Source: Gaiellaceae bacterium (GTDB lineage: Bacteria > Actinomycetota > Thermoleophilia > Gaiellales > Gaiellaceae). Taken from it: DNA of 64,000 bases. The notes beneath the pieces are model-generated. The model ran no database searches. It was not told the DNA's origin and saw nothing but the letters and a program-made list of their open reading frames with translations. Below are positions 3,209 to 55,379 of this stretch, one piece after another (the stretch's first letter is position 1; the number at the start of each line of letters is the position of its first letter). The stretch is taken from positions 582 to 64,581 of the forward strand of contig DASSSO010000033.1 in assembly GCA_035776735.1 (NCBI GenBank). Reading direction: 5' to 3'. The position numbers and the translations under genes are program-made.

Positions 3209-6200
3209 CTATACCCGACTCTCCGGGGCCTGAGTCAAGGTCATCGGCAGCTCGAAGACGAAGCACCCACCCTGCCCGCTGTCGGAGTCGACCCAGACGC
3301 GGCCGCCCATCGCGCTCGCGAGGCCGCGGGCGATGAAGAGCCCGAGGCCGGTGCCGCCGGGAGCCTGGCGGGTCGCCTCAGCGCGGTAGAACTTCCGGAA
3401 GATCCGCTCCTGCTCGCTCTGGGGAACGCCGGCGCCCTCGTCGACGACGCGAACCTGCACGGCGTCGTGCGTCCTGCGGGCGGCGACCGTGACCGTCCCG
3501 CCCTGCGGGGAGAACTTGACGGCGTTGTCGACGAGGTTCGCGAGGATCTGCCGCACCTTGTCCCGGTCGGCCGACGCGTCGAGCGGCTCGTCGGGGACCT
3601 CGACGACGAAGCGCCGCGCGTTCGCGAGCTCGCGCTCGGCGCTCTCGACGACGTCGGAGACCACCTCGCGGAGGTCGGTCGGCGCGAACTGGACCTGAAG
3701 GTCGCCGCTCTCGAGGCGCGCGACGCTCAGCAGCGCGTCCACGATCCCGGTCAGGCGCTGCGCCTCCGTGGCGATGTAGCCGAGGAACGTGCGGCGCGCC
3801 TCGTCCTCGAACGCCACGTCCTCCCGCAGGAGCGTCTCGGCGAAGCCGTAGATCGACGTCAGCGGCGCGCGCAGCTCATGCGAGACCGTGGAGACGAAGC
3901 CGGACTTCAGCTGCTCCACGAGGTGATCGGAGGACACGTCCCTGAACGCGTAGATGCGGCCGGCGACCGCCCCGGCGGGATCCCGCATCACGGCCTCGCT
4001 GACCGAGAGCCAGACCTCCTCCCCCCCGCGATGGATCTGGATCAGCCCGCGCCCCTCCGCCGAGGTCTCGTCGGGCTCGAGGCTCCGCTGGAGGACGTCC
4101 GCCGGCGTCCGTCCCATCGCCTCCGCCGCCGGCACGTCCGTGATCTCCTCCGCCGCCGCGTTCCACAGCACGACGCAGCCCTCCCGGTCGACCGCGACGA
4201 TCCCGTCGGCGACGTTGCCGAGAATCGCCACGCTCCGTTCCCGTTCCAGCACGACGCGCTGGTAGAGCTCGGCGTTGGACAGGAACGCGGACACGTTGGC
4301 CGCGAGCGCGGCGAGCGCCTCGACCTCCTCGTCGCGCCAGGAGCGCGCGCCGCGCGCGTACACGGCGAGGACGCCGTGCACGGCTCCCTCCGGGCCGACG
4401 AGCGGGGCGCCGAGATAGGCGGCGTGGCCCGCCTCCAGCAGCGCGTCGGAGCCGCTGAGGATCCCGCCGGCTCGCGCGTCGCCGACCGCCACCGGGCCGC
4501 GGGACTGGACGACCTCCCCCGCGAGCTCCCCAACCGCCGAGACACGGCTGCCGATCGCCGCGTCAGCGCCTTCCCCGTGGGCCGCGCTGACCACGAGCTC
4601 GTCGCCTTCGAGCATGCTCACCGCGGCCGCGTCGGCGCCGACGAGCCCGGGCGCCTGCTCGACGATCTCCTCGAGGATCGCGTCGGGGTCGAGCTCGCTC
4701 GCGAGCAGCGTCCCCGTCCGGGCGAGCTGCTGCGCGATCGCGCGGTTCCGCCGCTCGGCCTCGAAGAGCTCCGCGCGCTCGAGGGCTCCCCGTGCGGCAC
4801 CGGCGAGATGGTGGGCCAGCTCGATCTCGTCGTCGGAGAAGGCCTGTTCCTCGGAGAAGAAGACGAGGCCGATGCCGGTCTGCTCGCGTCTCGGCGCCTC
4901 GACGGGGACCGCGACGAGCGAGCGGAAGCCCATCCCGTCCGCGAGCCCGCGCCAGGCGTCGCCGAAGCGATCGTCCTCGGCGACGTGCGGCGAGGCGAGC
5001 ACGCGCTTGCGGAGGGCCGCGTCATGCAGGGGCTCCGCTCCGCCGACGCCTTTCGCGAGGAACTCGGAGACCGCGGGAGGGAGCTCGTGCGCGCCCGAGA
5101 GCCGCAGCCCGCCGTCGCCGGGCATGAGCACGGCCGCGAAGCTCCCGCCGAGCGCCTCGCTCGCCGCCTGGGCGACGGCGTCGAGGGTCTCGTCCAGGGA
5201 GAGGGGCTGGGCGAGGACGGACGCGATCCGGAAGAACCCTCGCTGGATCCGTACCTGCCGCGCGCTCTGCTCGATGCTCGCCACGTTGCGGAGCGCGACC
5301 GAGCCGAGGTTCGCGAACGCCTCCAACACCTCGACGTCCTCCGCGCTGAAGCGCCGGTCGGGGTCCTTCGTCCCGACGCCGATGACGCCGCGGACCTCGC
5401 CCCACCAGGTCATCGGGGCGACCATCGCGGCGGTGACGCCCTCGTACGCCTCGTGCGGCCTCTCGACCTCGTCGCCGTAGTCGAGTGACACGACCGCCTG
5501 CCGGCGCCGCATCGCCTCGCCCGCGAGCCCGGTCTCGGAGGGGAACTCGAGCTCGATCAGGTTGGCCGGAAGCCCGTACACGGCTGCGCAGCGGAGGACA
5601 CCCCGTCGCGGGTCGAGGAGGTAGCAGTCCGCGGCGTCGGCCTCCAGGAGCTTCGTCACCTCGACCACGAGCCGCTGGAGGACCGCCTCCACCTGGAGCT
5701 CGCTCGTCATCACCTGCGCCGCCTGGACGAGCGCGGCCTGCCGGTCGAGGCGGCGCCGGTTCTCGTCCAGGAGCTGCGCCGTGTGCAGCGCGAGCCCCAC
5801 CTCGCGGGCGACGGCCTCGGCGAGCGACACGTCCGAGGCCGTCCACTCGGTCGTCTCCGCCCGGTGGAGCCCGAAGACGCCGATCACGTCGCCGAAGACC
5901 TCGATCGGCGTCGCGAGCGCCGCCTTCGTCCCGATCTGGAGCAGCGTCTCGACCTGCCCGAGGCTCGGATCCCGCAGCTCGGGATCCTGCGCGACGTCGC
6001 CGGAAACCACCGTCCGGCGCCTTCGAGCGGCGAGGTTCACGACCGGGAGGTTCGGCGCCGCCGTCCCGATCGAATCCACGCCGGGAGCGTCCCACTCGGC
6101 GCGGATCGGCATCGTCCGGCCCGGCTGGCCGAGTCGGATGAAGCAGCGGGCGACGCCGGTGGCCCTGCCCACCTCCTCGACGGCGATGCGGAGCACGGTC

Positions 6201-11852: not shown

Positions 11853-12188
11853 ATGGCAGACGCACAGGTTGTGACCGAGGAGACCTTCGACCAGGAGGTC
11901 CTCACCTCCGACACCCCGGTCCTCGTCGACTTCTGGGCCGAGTGGTGCCAGCCGTGCCACATGGTGGCGCCGGTGCTCGACAAGATCGCCGAGGAGCGGC
12001 AGGGCCAGCTGAAGCTCGTGAAGATCAACATCGACGAGCAGCCGGCGATCGCGCAGCGCTATGGGATCGCGTCGATCCCGACGATGGTGCTCTTCAAGGA
12101 CGGCGAGCCGGCCGCCGCCGCGCTCGGCGCCCAGCCCAAGGGCGCCCTGGAGCGCTCACTCGGCCTCTCCGAGAACGGAACCGGGTAG
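11853..12188 (+). CDS. trxA: thioredoxin (active site WCQPC rather than WCGPC)
   Basis: VLVDFWAEWCQPCHMVAP, and KINIDEQPAIAQRYGIASIPTMVLFKDGE. 111 aa. Confidence 0.9.
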   Translation: MADAQVVTEETFDQEVLTSDTPVLVDFWAEWCQPCHMVAPVLDKIAEERQGQLKLVKINIDEQPAIAQRYGIASIPTMVLFKDGEPAAAALGAQPKGALERSLGLSENGTG

Positions 12189-12985
12189 CCGGGTACCTCC
12201 TCATCAATCCGCGCTCGGGGGAGGACTCGCCGAGCGCGGACGAGCTTCGGGCCGCAGCTGCCGAGCGCGGCGTCGAGACGCACGTGCTCGGCGAGGGCGA
12301 CGACCTCGCCGAGCTCGCCCGCGGCGCGGACGCGGACACCCTCGGCATGGCCGGGGGCGACGGCTCGCTCGCCCCGGTCGCCGAGGTGGCGATCGAGCGC
12401 GGCCTGCCGTTCGTCTGCGTCCCGTTCGGGACGCGGAACCACTTCGCGCGCGACCTCGGCCTCGACCGTGACGACCCGATCGCCGCGCTCAGCGCCTTCG
12501 AGGGGAAGGAGCGGCGGATCGACGTCGGCCGCGTCCGCGGCGACCTGTTCCTCAACAACGTCAGCCTGGGCGCGTACGCGGCCCTGGTTCACCGCCGCGA
12601 GCACCACCGCCGCCGCGGCAACGCCTTCGCGCGTCTCCGCGCGCTCCTGCTGACCGTGAGAAACCGCGAGCCGCTGGGCCTGAGCGTGGACGGCGAGGCG
12701 GTCGAGGCGGACGTCGCGCTCGTCTCGAACAACGACTACACGCTGGAGCTCTTCTCGCTCGGCGAGCGCGACCGGCTCGACGAGGGGAAGCTGCACCTGT
12801 ATCTCGCGCGCGGTTGGCGCTTCTCGGAGTGGGAGGAGCGCGCGTGCACGTCCCTCACGATCGACACAGCACGCCACCGCATCGATGCGGCCGTCGACGG
12901 CGAGCCGGCCGAGTTCGAGACGCCGCTCGAGTTCACGAGCGAGCCGCGTGCGCTACGCGTGCTCGTCCCGGCTTCGCCAGGCTGA
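12185..12985 (+). CDS. diacylglycerol kinase catalytic-domain (YegS/LCB5-like) lipid kinase; start codon unresolved
   Basis: LLINPRSG N-terminal motif, GMAGGDGS, and CVPFGTRNHFARDLG. There is no ATG/GTG/TTG in frame near the conserved N-terminus. The annotated start is the GTA codon overlapping the trxA TAG. Confidence 0.7.
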   Translation, partial: VAGYLLINPRSGEDSPSADELRAAAAERGVETHVLGEGDDLAELARGADADTLGMAGGDGSLAPVAEVAIERGLPFVCVPFGTRNHFARDLGLDRDDPIAALSAFEGKERRIDVGRVRGDLFLNNVSLGAYAALVHRREHHRRRGNAFARLRALLLTVRNREPLGLSVDGEAVEADVALVSNNDYTLELFSLGERDRLDEGKLHLYLARGWRFSEWEERACTSLTIDTARHRIDAAVDGEPAEFETPLEFTSEPRALRVLVPASPG

Positions 12986-22359: not shown

Positions 22360-22830
22360 GTGCTGGCGGCCGGCGACCGCATTCCCGACGTGCAGGTGTG
22401 GCTCGCGCCCAGAGAGGGCGTCTCGCTTCACGACCTCGTCTCCGAGGGCCCGATCCTCCTCCTCTTCTACCTCTTCGACTGGTCGGGCACCTGAACGAAC
22501 GAGATGGAGCTCCTGCGTGACAGGAGCCGGGAGTTCGAGGAGGCGGGAGTCCGGATCATGGCGGCGTCGCGCGACTCCGCCTGGTCGCACGTGGCCTGGA
22601 TCCAGGCGCTCGACCTGACCTTCCCGCTGCTCTCGGACTGGAACGGCGACGCGGTTCGCGGCTTCGGGGTCGCGCAGGACTACCGGGGGATGAGCGACGT
22701 CGCCCAGCGGTCCGCGTTCCTCGTCGACACCGGCGGTACGGTCCGCGGCGCATGGGCCTACGAGGACGGCGACGTTCCGGACGTGGACGAGCTGCTCGCG
22801 GCCGCGCGGGCCTTGTCGGCCTCGTCCTAG
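22360..22830 (+). CDS. Bcp/AhpC-TSA-type peroxiredoxin with in-frame UGA (22492-22494) at the peroxidatic Cys position; probable selenocysteine
   Basis: Track ORFs 22015..22494 and 22504..22830 share one frame. The joined product is ...PILLLFYLFDWSGT-U-TNEMELLRDRSREFEEAGVRIMAASRDSAWSHVAWIQALDLTFPLLSDWNGDAVRGFGV...RSAFLVDTGGTVR, a full Prx fold signature. GTG 22360 is a tentative start. Confidence 0.6.
22496..22537 (+). promoter_or_regulatory. candidate bacterial SECIS hairpin downstream of UGA 22492-22494
   Basis: Lower stem cgaac (22496-22500)/gttcg (22533-22537). Upper stem gctcctg (22509-22515)/caggagc (22521-22527). Apical loop CGUGA starts 21 nt after the UGA and contains GU. Confidence 0.45.
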
Positions 22831-53326: not shown

Positions 53327-54148
53327 ATGCACGAGCCGCTCCGGAAGTTCTTCGCCGACCGCGGCCCGCACCTGGCCGCGATGATCGCCTACTTCGCGCT
53401 GCTCTCGCTCGTGCCGCTCGTCTTCCTGGCGCTCGCCCTGCTGGGCCTGTTCGGGCGCGTCGACGAGTCCACCTACCTCGTCACCGAGCTGAACAAGATC
53501 CTCCCGTCCGCGTCGATCTCCCAGATCGTGCGCGTCGTCAACCAGATCCAGGACAACGCGGCGACGCTGGGGGTGATCGGCGGGGTCTTCCTGCTCTGGA
53601 CCTCGCTCTCGCTCTTCAGCGTGCTCGAGTCGGCCTTCAACATCGTCTACGGCCGCCCGAACCGTTCCTTCCTCCACGGCAAGGGGATCGCCGTCGCCGT
53701 GATGCTCGGGACGCTCGTCACGCTCTTCGCGGGCCTCGTGATCGGCACCGTCGGCTACGCGCTGCTCGAGGACGCGGCACCCGGCGTGATCGAGAACCAG
53801 TGGGTCGCGTACGTCCTCTCGCTCGCCCTCTCGACCGGGGCGGTCTTCGTCTTCCTCGTCTCGACCTACTACCTGCTGACGAACGAGGACCTGGGCATCC
53901 GCGACGTCCTGCCCGGCGCGATCCTCGCCAGCATCCTGCTCCAGGTCAGCTTCCAGGTGCTGCCGCTCTACGTGGCGCTCTCGCAGCGTGACGAGGTCCT
54001 GACGCTCCGCGCGCTCGGCGCGCCCGTGATCCTGCTGATCTGGCTCTACGTGATGGCGAACGCGATCGTCCTCGGCGCCGAGGTCAACTGGTGGCGCTCC
54101 CGCGGCCGGCTCGCCGAGGATCGCGACGCGATCCCCGGCTTGGCCTAG
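53327..54148 (+). CDS. YihY/BrkB-family membrane protein
   Basis: AAMIAYFALLSLVPLVF, and later LLIWLY..A.I.L.GAE.N. Six TM segments. Confidence 0.85.
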   Translation: MHEPLRKFFADRGPHLAAMIAYFALLSLVPLVFLALALLGLFGRVDESTYLVTELNKILPSASISQIVRVVNQIQDNAATLGVIGGVFLLWTSLSLFSVLESAFNIVYGRPNRSFLHGKGIAVAVMLGTLVTLFAGLVIGTVGYALLEDAAPGVIENQWVAYVLSLALSTGAVFVFLVSTYYLLTNEDLGIRDVLPGAILASILLQVSFQVLPLYVALSQRDEVLTLRALGAPVILLIWLYVMANAIVLGAEVNWWRSRGRLAEDRDAIPGLA

Positions 54149-54708
54149 GCGAACGCAGCGAGGAGCGCTCTCGCGGCTCGGGCCCGGTGCGAGTTCCCGG
54201 CCTTCCACTCGTTGCCGAGCTCCGCCACGGTTCGCTCCTCGCCTTCCGGCACGAAGACCGGGTCGAACCCGAAGCCCCCGGAGCCGCGCGGCTCGTGCGC
54301 GATCCGGCCCTCGAGGATGCCCGTGCCGCGCCGCTCCTCGCCCGCCGGTGAGAGCGCCACGAGCTCGCAGACGTAGCGCGCCCGGCGGCCGCCGCCCTCC
54401 ACGCCCTCGAGCTCGGCGAGCAGCCTGTCGACGTGCAGGCCGCCGGCGAAGCGGGCGGACTTGATCCCCGGTGCGCCGTCGAGGCCCTCCACCTCCAGCC
54501 CCGAGTCCTCGCCGAGCACCCAGGCGGCGGGCTCGACTGTGCGCCCGTAGACGGCCTTCGCGCGGGCGTTGTCGTAGTAGGTCTCGCCGGTCTCCGGTGG
54601 GTAGTCGTCCACCTCGAGCGGCTCGATCCGCCAGCCGGGAAGCGCGGCGCGGAGCTCCCGCAGCTTGCCGGGGTTCTCGGAGGCGAGACGGGCGGCTACG
54701 GGTTCCAG
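54145..54708 (-). CDS. rdgB: non-canonical purine NTP pyrophosphatase (RdgB/HAM1); start codon unresolved
   Basis: LASENPGKLRE, GEDSGLEV..L.G.PG..SAR, GFGFDP.F and N..SHR..A. There is no ATG/GTG/TTG near the conserved N-terminus. Candidates are CTG 54708, or GTA 54699 which overlaps the mgtC TAG. Confidence 0.8.
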   Translation of the reverse strand: MEPVAARLASENPGKLRELRAALPGWRIEPLEVDDYPPETGETYYDNARAKAVYGRTVEPAAWVLGEDSGLEVEGLDGAPGIKSARFAGGLHVDRLLAELEGVEGGGRRARYVCELVALSPAGEERRGTGILEGRIAHEPRGSGGFGFDPVFVPEGEERTVAELGNEWKAGNSHRARAARALLAAFA

Positions 54709-55379
54709 CGGGCCGCCCGGACCGCATCGGCGTGCGTGAGCGCGTCGATCAGCTCGGCGGCCGTTCGCTCCGTCCCGAGCCGCACGCGCAGGTCGACGCG
54801 GCGGCGGTCGCCTTCCTCCGCGAACTCGAGCGAGCTGACGTCGGCGCCCGTCCGCTCCACCGCCTCCAGCACCGACACCGCGCTCGCACCTGCAGGCAGC
54901 TCCACCGCCAGGCGACCCTCCTCGGGCCGGGTGCGCGCCGACAGTCGGTAGGCGACGATCCGCAGGGGCCAGAGGAAGAGGAGCACGAGCGCCGTCGTGA
55001 CGAACGCCGCCTCGTAGTATCCGACCCCGGCGGCCATCCCGATCGCAGCCACCACCCACAGCGTCGCGGCCGTGGTCAGCCCCTTGACGGAGAGCCCCTG
55101 CCGGATGATCGCGCCGGCTCCGAGGAAGCCGATGCCGGTCACGATCTGCGCGGCAATGCGGGTCGGGTCGAAGACGAGCCCCTCCTCGGTGGAGAAGCGC
55201 CAGTCCGTCCACGCATAGGCGGAGACCATCGTGAAGAGCGCCGCACCGACGGACACGAGCATGTGCGTTCGCAGCCCCGCCTCGCGCTCCCGCAGCTCGC
55301 GCTCCAGGCCGATCGCCCCGCCGAGCGCAGCCGCGAGCCCGATGCGGAGGATGACCTCGGCCCAGGAGAGGTCAGGCAA
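54696..55379 (-). CDS. mgtC: MgtC/SapB-family membrane protein
   Basis: LAAALGGAIGLERE...R.AGLRTHMLV..GAALF, and GIGFLGAGAI. Confidence 0.85.
   Translation of the reverse strand: MPDLSWAEVILRIGLAAALGGAIGLERELREREAGLRTHMLVSVGAALFTMVSAYAWTDWRFSTEEGLVFDPTRIAAQIVTGIGFLGAGAIIRQGLSVKGLTTAATLWVVAAIGMAAGVGYYEAAFVTTALVLLFLWPLRIVAYRLSARTRPEEGRLAVELPAGASAVSVLEAVERTGADVSSLEFAEEGDRRRVDLRVRLGTERTAAELIDALTHADAVRAARWNP

Follow-up and report, generated by a model that had tools for sequence, protein, structure and literature searches.

The 64-kb window considered here (the whole stretch of DNA that was analysed) comes from the metagenome-assembled genome of a soil bacterium of the Gaiellaceae (G000; 3.18 Mb in 232 contigs, 70.8% G+C). 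It contains a thioredoxin gene, trxA, followed by a lipid kinase gene whose frame offers no canonical start codon (ATG, GTG or TTG) where the protein family begins, and whose start may instead be a GTA overlapping the trxA stop. The features of this locus are:

11853..12188, plus strand: trxA (thioredoxin, 111 amino acids), from the list of open reading frames (ORFs), with a Pfam Thioredoxin match at 1.2e-30.
12185..12188, plus strand: the GTAG junction, in which GTA, the proposed restart codon of the kinase, overlaps the TAG of trxA (read from the sequence).
12185..12985, plus strand: gene for a lipid kinase of the DAGK_cat family (Pfam DAGK_cat), 266 codons from GTA, with its TGA stop at 12983-12985.
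12203..12205, plus strand: ATC (Ile of LLINP), the rival start annotated by NCBI, giving a product MNPRSG..., which is found as an exact 260-amino-acid protein in NCBI nr.
12284..12286, plus strand: GTG in THVLGEG, the first canonical in-frame codon of the kinase, 33 codons in; the Prodigal-type start, giving a truncated product of 233 amino acids.

The 3' end of trxA is GGA ACC GGG TAG, with the TAG at 12186-12188, and one base back from this stop the kinase frame reads GTA GCC GGG TAC CTC CTC ATC AAT CCG CGC TCG GGG, or VAGYLLINPRSG; both had been described in a sequence-only reading of this DNA and can be read directly. The same reading placed the nearest upstream canonical codon of the kinase frame at 11942. 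It is correct that there is none outside the deep interior of trxA, where GTGs are found at 11942, 11945 and 11954, but the nearest is GTG 11954, from which the frame is devoid of ATG, GTG and TTG until GTG 12284, the codon in THVLGEG that had been named as the first one downstream. Between kinase codons -37 and +5, GTA is the only start-like codon with a central T, and the next near-cognate codon is ATC 12203, at codon +6. In public collections, the exact 233-amino-acid product from GTG 12284 is present in Logan and ENA, and the NCBI start of the equivalent protein in a sister genome (HET8653543.1, 259 amino acids) likewise lies at the ATC.

The kinase matches the Pfam DAGK_cat profile (PF00781) at 7.4e-18, with 64.8 bits against a cut-off of 23.6. 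Positions 3-125 of the profile cover residues 4-117 and, numbering from GTA, position 3 of the profile pairs with residue 4. The translation shows the family motifs LLINPRSG (the hhhNPxSG strand) and GMAGGDGS (GGDG). No named equivalog was matched, the best NCBIfam score being that of MamU (112 bits against a cut-off of 400), with TIGR00147 at 47 against 119. Matching lipid kinases in the PDB include 4wer, 3s40, 3t5p, 2qv7 and 2p1r (YegS), and residues 6-17 of these solved kinases pair with residues 2-5 of the query, so the N-terminus of the family lies just a few residues ahead of the LLINP strand, in agreement with the earlier placement of the N-terminus just before the NPxSG strand. According to these alignments, the N-terminus of the kinase is located at the trxA junction.

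The junction of this genome was compared with those of 20 further genomes from its genus, in which the kinase orthologues are 66-92% identical and mostly adjoin trxA (itself 76-95% identical across 20 same-genus loci). The codon aligned to GTA in these 21 genomes is GTA in 10 (GTAG in five, GTAA in five), CTG in seven, ATA in two (ATAA and ATAG), CTA in one and TTG in one; the sole CTA genome has a CTG two codons after the aligned codon. The N-terminus of the kinase falls at the aligned codon in each of the 21. Three of the CTG loci (L013, L018 and L019) are tightly bracketed, by an in-frame stop 3-4 codons 5' of the CTG and by the next canonical codon 21-29 codons 3' of it, so the kinase protein must start at that CTG. 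The first canonical codon downstream occupies 11 different positions among the orthologues, 21 to 125 codons in, and there is, thus, no conserved alternative start for the kinase downstream. In the GTA group, column entropies by kinase codon position are 0.20/0.13/0.76 downstream of the junction and 0.49/0.15/0.03 upstream of it, where they follow the trxA frame; by this measure, the translated frame changes from trxA to kinase exactly at GTAG. Kinase codons +2 to +5 encode Gly (18/19, with all four Gly codons used), Phe (TTC/TTT), Leu (CTC/CTT/CTG) and Leu/Val. The combination of an absent canonical start with a conserved N-terminus, and its persistence in the 20 further genomes, is beyond chance. 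At two of the loci (L016, G003:C13, and L021, G013:C6), the kinase is broken up into two or three frames by internal frameshifts or assembly errors, and the GTAG/GTAA junction is intact.

A maximum-likelihood tree was built from the 18 full-length kinase orthologues, with L016, L020 and L021 excluded as partial or frameshifted. The GTA users form a single clade (support 99/96), in which GTA has been kept across 77-92% protein identity. CTG users are found on both sides of the midpoint root, which suggests that the ancestor of the genus was already without a strong start, and that it probably used CTG. Only one lineage has shifted to a strong start (TTG), though a single substitution would suffice (GTAA to GTGA, or CTG to GTG or ATG), and a weak start appears, from this distribution, to be tolerated or favoured for the kinase gene. 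Where the kinase start is not overlapped, lying 6-19 nucleotides past the trxA stop or past an inserted gene, it is CTG or TTG in 8/8 lineages, indicating that codon identity still matters. The two genes may be in the same frame with a stop between them (L013, L018, L019), in another frame with a spacer of 6-19 nucleotides, separated by an intervening gene (L008-L010) or in the -1 relation described here; this variability rules out a single conserved recoding event.

The window contains a second junction of this kind, on the minus strand, for which the sequence-only reading had pointed to the same GTA/TAG arrangement; it is indeed found at 54699..54696. The features concerned are:

54696..55379, minus strand: mgtC-family gene, stop TAG at 54698..54696 (ORF list), 76-94% identical in same-genus loci.
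54145..54699, minus strand: rdgB (Ham1-family NTP pyrophosphatase), read from GTA 54699..54697, a codon that shares bases with the mgtC TAG (Pfam Ham1p_like, 6.2e-47).

The rdgB frame reads GTA and then AARLASENPGKL, and position 3 of the Ham1p_like profile pairs with residue 5. Among 23 same-genus genomes, the rdgB junction codon is CTG in eight, GTG in five, GTA in four, TTG in three, ATG in one, CTA in one and unclear in one. The four-nucleotide overlap is kept in 22/23 of them, always as NTGA, NTAG or NTAA: a TGA stop of mgtC goes with an NTG codon in rdgB, and a TAG or TAA stop with NTA. This exchange at a single site bears out the earlier suggestion that an NTAG overlap forces an NTA start. 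In the outgroup genomes (other families of the order), rdgB starts with ATG or GTG in 7/7. A possible alternative start for rdgB is the CTG at 54708..54706, three codons 5' of the GTA, which is the start annotated by NCBI and is held in place by the coding sequence of mgtC. The six codons that interchange at this one site (ATG, GTG, TTG, CTG, GTA and CTA) amount to a natural mutagenesis series.

Overlaps of this type were surveyed in the whole genome with a simple codon-usage gene caller of our own (3011-3019 genes called), counting as an overlap any same-strand neighbour with a frame starting one base before the upstream stop and with a coding signal within 10 codons. The counts were:

NTGA: GTGA 253, ATGA 157, CTGA 93, TTGA 29.
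NTAG: GTAG 45, CTAG 44, ATAG 9, TTAG 4.
NTAA: GTAA 12, CTAA 7, ATAA 2.

GTAG at a junction is, therefore, not rare by itself (45 in the genome). About 43% of the called genes in this genome stop at TAG, as compared with about 27% in two sampled outgroup genomes, and the unusual frequency of this stop leads to more NTAG junctions. Non-canonical junctions without an ATG, GTG or TTG within -20 to +12 codons were defined as orphan overlaps, and 33 were found (CTGA 18, GTAG 5, CTAG 5, ATAG 2, CTAA 2, ATAA 1). An orphan was considered supported if the family profile began at the junction codon or too near it for any canonical start; of the 22/33 checked against Pfam, 15 were supported, five were uninformative and two were false, these being the L19 and ferredoxin-like genes, in which an ATG is present 13-29 codons in. 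Pfam-supported CTG starts were found for an epimerase (LKVLVTGATG), an SDR, a second DAGK paralogue, a creatininase, DUF6328, DUF2332, a glyoxalase and an enoyl-CoA hydratase; ATA starts for YmdB (ATAA), LivF and an Xaa-Pro peptidase; and a GTA start for a glutaredoxin-like protein (GTAG).

Besides the kinase, rdgB and the DAGK paralogue, there are twelve further Pfam-supported junction genes, namely the other eleven just named and a methyltransferase, with GTA, ATA, CTG or CTA as junction codon. Their positions in G000, by contig, are:

First six: C8:22399, C34:6254, C181(-):3490, C200:16038, C177:519, C109(-):8312.
Last six: C7(-):1359, C217:14175, C37(-):14078, C59(-):3396, C68:17865, C110(-):27742.

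The products of six of these twelve were looked up in public annotation, where only the epimerase was present with its CTG start, and the four ATA or GTA products and the CTG product of the SDR were absent. More generally, the NCBI annotation of this genome accepts CTG as a start at CTGA overlaps (rdgB, the epimerase and the kinase paralogue) and contains no ATA, CTA or GTA starts. The paralogue of the DAGK/YegS family (DAGK_cat + YegS_C; G000 C226:4491) has an NCBI-annotated CTG start in CTGA (LKTALLVNPAS), and its next canonical codon is 61 codons 3'. A third overlap without a canonical start lies within the window itself, at 22827-22830, where the stop of a (seleno)peroxiredoxin gene forms a CTAG with a 497-codon frame for a membrane protein (LVLYLGAGLVSTWPAL...) that has no ATG, GTG or TTG within -25 to +27 codons and no Pfam match.

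The survey was extended to 800-kb samples of a second genome of the genus and of two other families of the order, which yielded 11 orphan overlaps in the former and 4 and 5 in the latter. Some of the orphans outside the genus are convincing, among them one of the CTGA type at a HemW-like radical SAM gene. A trait specific to the genus was rejected on this basis, as orphan overlaps are about two-fold enriched in the genus and not unique to it. A universal drift of overlap starts was also rejected, because ATG or GTG was kept in all 47 same-genus loci examined (23/23 for rpsI and 24/24 for pyrE); the drift seems, thus, to be gene-specific rather than a genus-wide loss of start-codon checking. 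Relaxed starts away from stops were also considered, but most of the 33 candidates without an adjacent upstream gene had an obvious canonical start 15-25 codons in and were boundary artefacts; convincing non-canonical starts remote from upstream stops are rare.

The Shine-Dalgarno (SD) signal, measured as a duplex energy, provides further insight into how these junctions may be used. Canonical overlaps are enriched for it, with a mean between -6.1 and -6.8 kcal/mol and 49-58% of the sites at or below -6. Orphan overlaps have a mean of -4.35, and 18% of them reach -6 or lower; the values for in-gene controls are -3.9 and 25%. The kinase site has an energy of -4.4, and the rdgB site one of -5.8. 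Orphan overlaps thus show no SD enrichment relative to in-gene controls, which makes de novo, SD-driven initiation unlikely and hand-over from the terminating ribosome the economical explanation.

The translation apparatus of this genome is ordinary in the components considered. A special initiator tRNA was rejected: Aragorn found 43 tRNAs, and the single initiator among them is ordinary, with a CAU anticodon, a mismatch at 1:72 and an anticodon stem that has three G-C pairs. A missing or odd initiation factor 3 (IF3) or ribosome recycling factor (RRF) was rejected as a cause too, since infC is present (with a TTG start) and RRF is present and intact. Relative to the outgroups, IF3 carries the mild substitutions Q82E, I96V, M140T (Thr for Met after FRGRE) and A179G, and a Cys replaced by Ala or Val in PPVCR. 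The infC loci of 27 genomes (L068-L097) show that the IF3 of the genus departs from that of other families at a few otherwise fixed positions, including this Cys (the position of Cys65 in E. coli). Upstream of the TTG start of infC (L088:2037-2072, minus strand; G000 C37, about 3560-3595), there is a strong AAGGAGGA together with a conserved five-codon mini-ORF, TTG GTG AAG AGC CTT TGA, the TGA of which overlaps the infC TTG (TTGA, or GTGA in one relative). In outgroup families, infC starts with TTG, GTG or ATG. In this genus, a leader peptide followed by -4 re-initiation may be the route by which IF3 itself is produced.

Termination-reinitiation at -4 overlaps has been described for NTGA only (Huber et al., 2019, PMC6728339, and 2023, PMC10666635; reviewed in PMC12548453), other overlaps being attributed to exclusion by start and stop sequences, to annotation errors or to rare non-canonical starts (PMC10666635). 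Recent surveys of overlaps, including bioRxiv 10.64898/2026.09.10.750558, take their starts from annotation, so these other overlaps are invisible to them. The kinase junction resembles NTGA coupling in being co-directed, in its four-nucleotide overlap of stop and start, in the lack of an SD of its own for the downstream gene and in the conservation of this geometry in relatives, and differs from it in having TAG or TAA as the stop and, in place of a canonical NTG, GTA, ATA or CTA in the overlap.

There are two precedents for a start of this kind. As cited in PMC2268962, a mutant of E. coli recJ has a GUA start without SD, appears to be coupled to the upstream ORF and is rescued by alleles of infC, encoding IF3 (Haggerty and Lovett, 1997). 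On that source's account, the kinase shares with it the GUA start, the lack of an SD and an apparent re-initiation coupling to the upstream ORF, but recJ concerns a laboratory loss-of-function mutation needing IF3 fidelity mutants, whereas the GUA of the kinase is natural and conserved and the IF3 is ordinary. In Streptomyces, the sigR gene naturally starts at GTC or GTT, and IF3 represses this start (Feeney et al., 2017, PMC5472188). It is also actinobacterial, with a conserved GTN start other than GTG, and its weak start is functionally wanted, in a regulon related to oxidative stress and thioredoxin; unlike the kinase, which lacks an SD and overlaps the upstream stop, sigR is initiated de novo, with a very strong SD (AGGAGGTG). 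The kinase orthologues with CTG and ATA are also comparable to the near-cognate starts of NCBI table 11 (CTG, ATT, ATC and ATA), a group that includes the AUU/ATC autoregulation of infC. In E. coli, initiation at CUG, AUA, AUC and AUU reaches about 1-2% of that at AUG, and GUA is among the other 57 codons, with lower levels still (10.1101/063800). By analogy with recJ and sigR, a GUA start is plausible.

On balance, the functional start of the kinase is probably the GTA that overlaps the trxA stop, a use of GTA through termination-reinitiation that the sequence-only reading had proposed and that the comparative data support. The kinase gene would be co-transcribed with trxA, and ribosomes that have terminated at the trxA UAG would stay on the mRNA, back up by a single base and restart at the GUA within the overlap. 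This restart would most likely involve the initiator tRNA: GUA keeps the central U:A pair, pairs G:U at position 1 as GUG does and, like AUA, has an A:C mismatch at position 3. The outcome would be a low yet sufficient output of full-length lipid kinase. We infer that the restart depends on trxA termination, takes place with fMet-tRNA and is weak; for the dependence on termination, the missing SD enrichment at orphan overlaps and the rarity of non-canonical starts remote from upstream stops are indirect evidence. The kinase gene is co-directed with trxA and its start shares four nucleotides with the stop, as GTAG or GTAA in 10 genomes, which is the definition of a -4 overlap, while the restart codon is not a canonical NTG. 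We judge this to be a known mechanism in a new form, in which the -4 coupling overlap has TAG or TAA as its stop and NTA as its restart codon; it would be used by a subset of genes that are probably expressed at low levels.

Several points weigh against this interpretation. GTA is not among the starts of NCBI table 11 (TTG, CTG, ATT, ATC, ATA, ATG and GTG), and GUA differs from AUG at two positions. Nor is it one of the seven best start codons in E. coli (10.1101/063800). Six codons 3' of the GTA there is an invariant ATC, which is recognised as a near-cognate start. The support that the GTA clade by itself gives for translation of codons +1 to +5 is modest, with 4/5 changes at third positions (P about 0.06). 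The ordinary IF3, initiator tRNA and RRF provide no cause for a relaxed check of the start codon, and the effect is not general, given that the rpsI and pyrE overlaps retain ATG or GTG in the genus. The orphan class is also noisy, with about 7% of all genes scoring as orphans with the crude caller and 2/22 of those inspected being false, so the count to be trusted is the homology-checked one, of 15 or more.

The main rival, which the sequence-only reading did not consider, is a start at ATC 12203 (MNPRSG...), either de novo or by re-initiation 15 nucleotides past the trxA stop, and restarts a few nucleotides past a stop are a known phenomenon. ATC is a table 11 start, its activity as a near-cognate has been measured in E. 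coli (10.1101/063800), it is used by infC in Streptomyces (PMC5472188) and it is called by NCBI in this genome and in the sister genome. It is invariant in 19 orthologues, but this conservation would be expected anyway, as ATC encodes the Ile of the motif. The five codons 5' of it behave as coding, with Gly, Phe, Leu and Leu kept while third positions vary; the relatives with CTG or TTG set the N-terminus six codons further 5', bracketed by an in-frame stop; and a start at ATC would remove the first beta-strand, which is part of DAGK_cat profile positions 1-7 and of the solved lipid kinases. GTA and CTA are outside the table 11 list and annotated by no pipeline, so NCBI fell back on ATC for the kinase. 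A start at this codon is, in our view, unlikely. Still less likely is a restart without start codon or initiator tRNA, in which the post-termination 70S ribosome would slip back by one base and continue with elongator tRNAs, giving Val (GUA) or Ala (GCC) as the first residue. The geometry is the sole constant at the overlaps, the codon being NUG or NUA with any first base that upstream codon usage allows, orphan overlaps lack SD enrichment, and RRF inactivation in E. coli leads to non-canonical restarts beside the stop (Janosi, 1998; Inokuchi, 2000; both as cited in PMC2268962), all of which would suit such a restart. It is difficult to reconcile with the intact RRF of this genome, with the CTG or TTG, rather than arbitrary codons, of the 8/8 non-overlapped kinase lineages, with the strict ATG/GTG of rpsI and pyrE, and with the requirement for formylated initiator tRNA in E. 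coli re-initiation (PMC2268962).

The remaining explanations are far less probable. A programmed -1 frameshift at GGG UAG, yielding a Trx-kinase fusion, would fit the -1 relation of the kinase frame, which is open across the trxA stop, and shifts of the 'hungry' or stop-adjacent kind are, in principle, a known phenomenon. The sequence-only reading had, nevertheless, considered such a fusion unlikely for want of an X XXY YYZ site, and there is no such heptamer in the last 90 nucleotides of trxA. The 80 nucleotides after the junction fold no better than shuffled sequences (z -0.21), no Rfam element was found at the junction, and the other orphan overlaps join unrelated genes; no one recoding mechanism can fit relatives that vary in frame relation, spacer and intervening gene, and a fusion seems very improbable. 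The same holds for a start at GTG 12284, with a protein of 233 amino acids and an open frame 5' of it that would be a mere leftover. It is the sole canonical codon on offer and the choice of Prodigal-type pipelines, but the 33 codons 5' of it are conserved at the protein level (LLINPRSG...SPSA[DE]EL) with varying third positions, the canonical codon is scattered over 11 positions (21 to 125 codons in) among the orthologues, and the NPxSG nucleotide-binding strand-loop would be lost. An assembly error at the junction, or a decaying kinase pseudogene, might be suspected in a metagenome-assembled genome of 232 contigs, especially with the internal frameshifts of the kinase in L016 and L021. It is the least probable explanation of all, as the same GTAG/GTAA is found in 10 independent assemblies and the kinase retains full-length conservation (66-92% identity) and coding periodicity. 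A comparison of orthologous junctions had been suggested as a safeguard against sequencing errors, and it shows the GTA of the kinase to be common to separate assemblies, with ATG, GTG or TTG at the rdgB site in 9/23.

If GUA, AUA and CUA do start proteins at NTAG and NTAA overlaps, the NTGA-only rule for -4 coupling would be too narrow, and start-codon checking would be looser after termination than in de novo initiation, which bears on the question of 30S versus 70S re-initiation and on IF3 proofreading in this process. More broadly, and more doubtfully, -1-frame restart at four-nucleotide overlaps might be largely blind to the third base in Gaiellaceae and maybe across many high-GC bacteria and archaea; NUA (GUA, AUA, CUA) would then be equal to NUG, TAG and TAA stops would join -4 coupling, a class of genes would be expressed from codons that lie outside gene finders and genetic-code tables, and the initiator tRNA would maybe be bypassed. 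Starts at NUA codons would also imply systematic annotation errors, with the kinase losing 33 residues in Prodigal-type annotation or six, including the first strand, in that of NCBI, and with at least 15 genes in this genome similarly affected.

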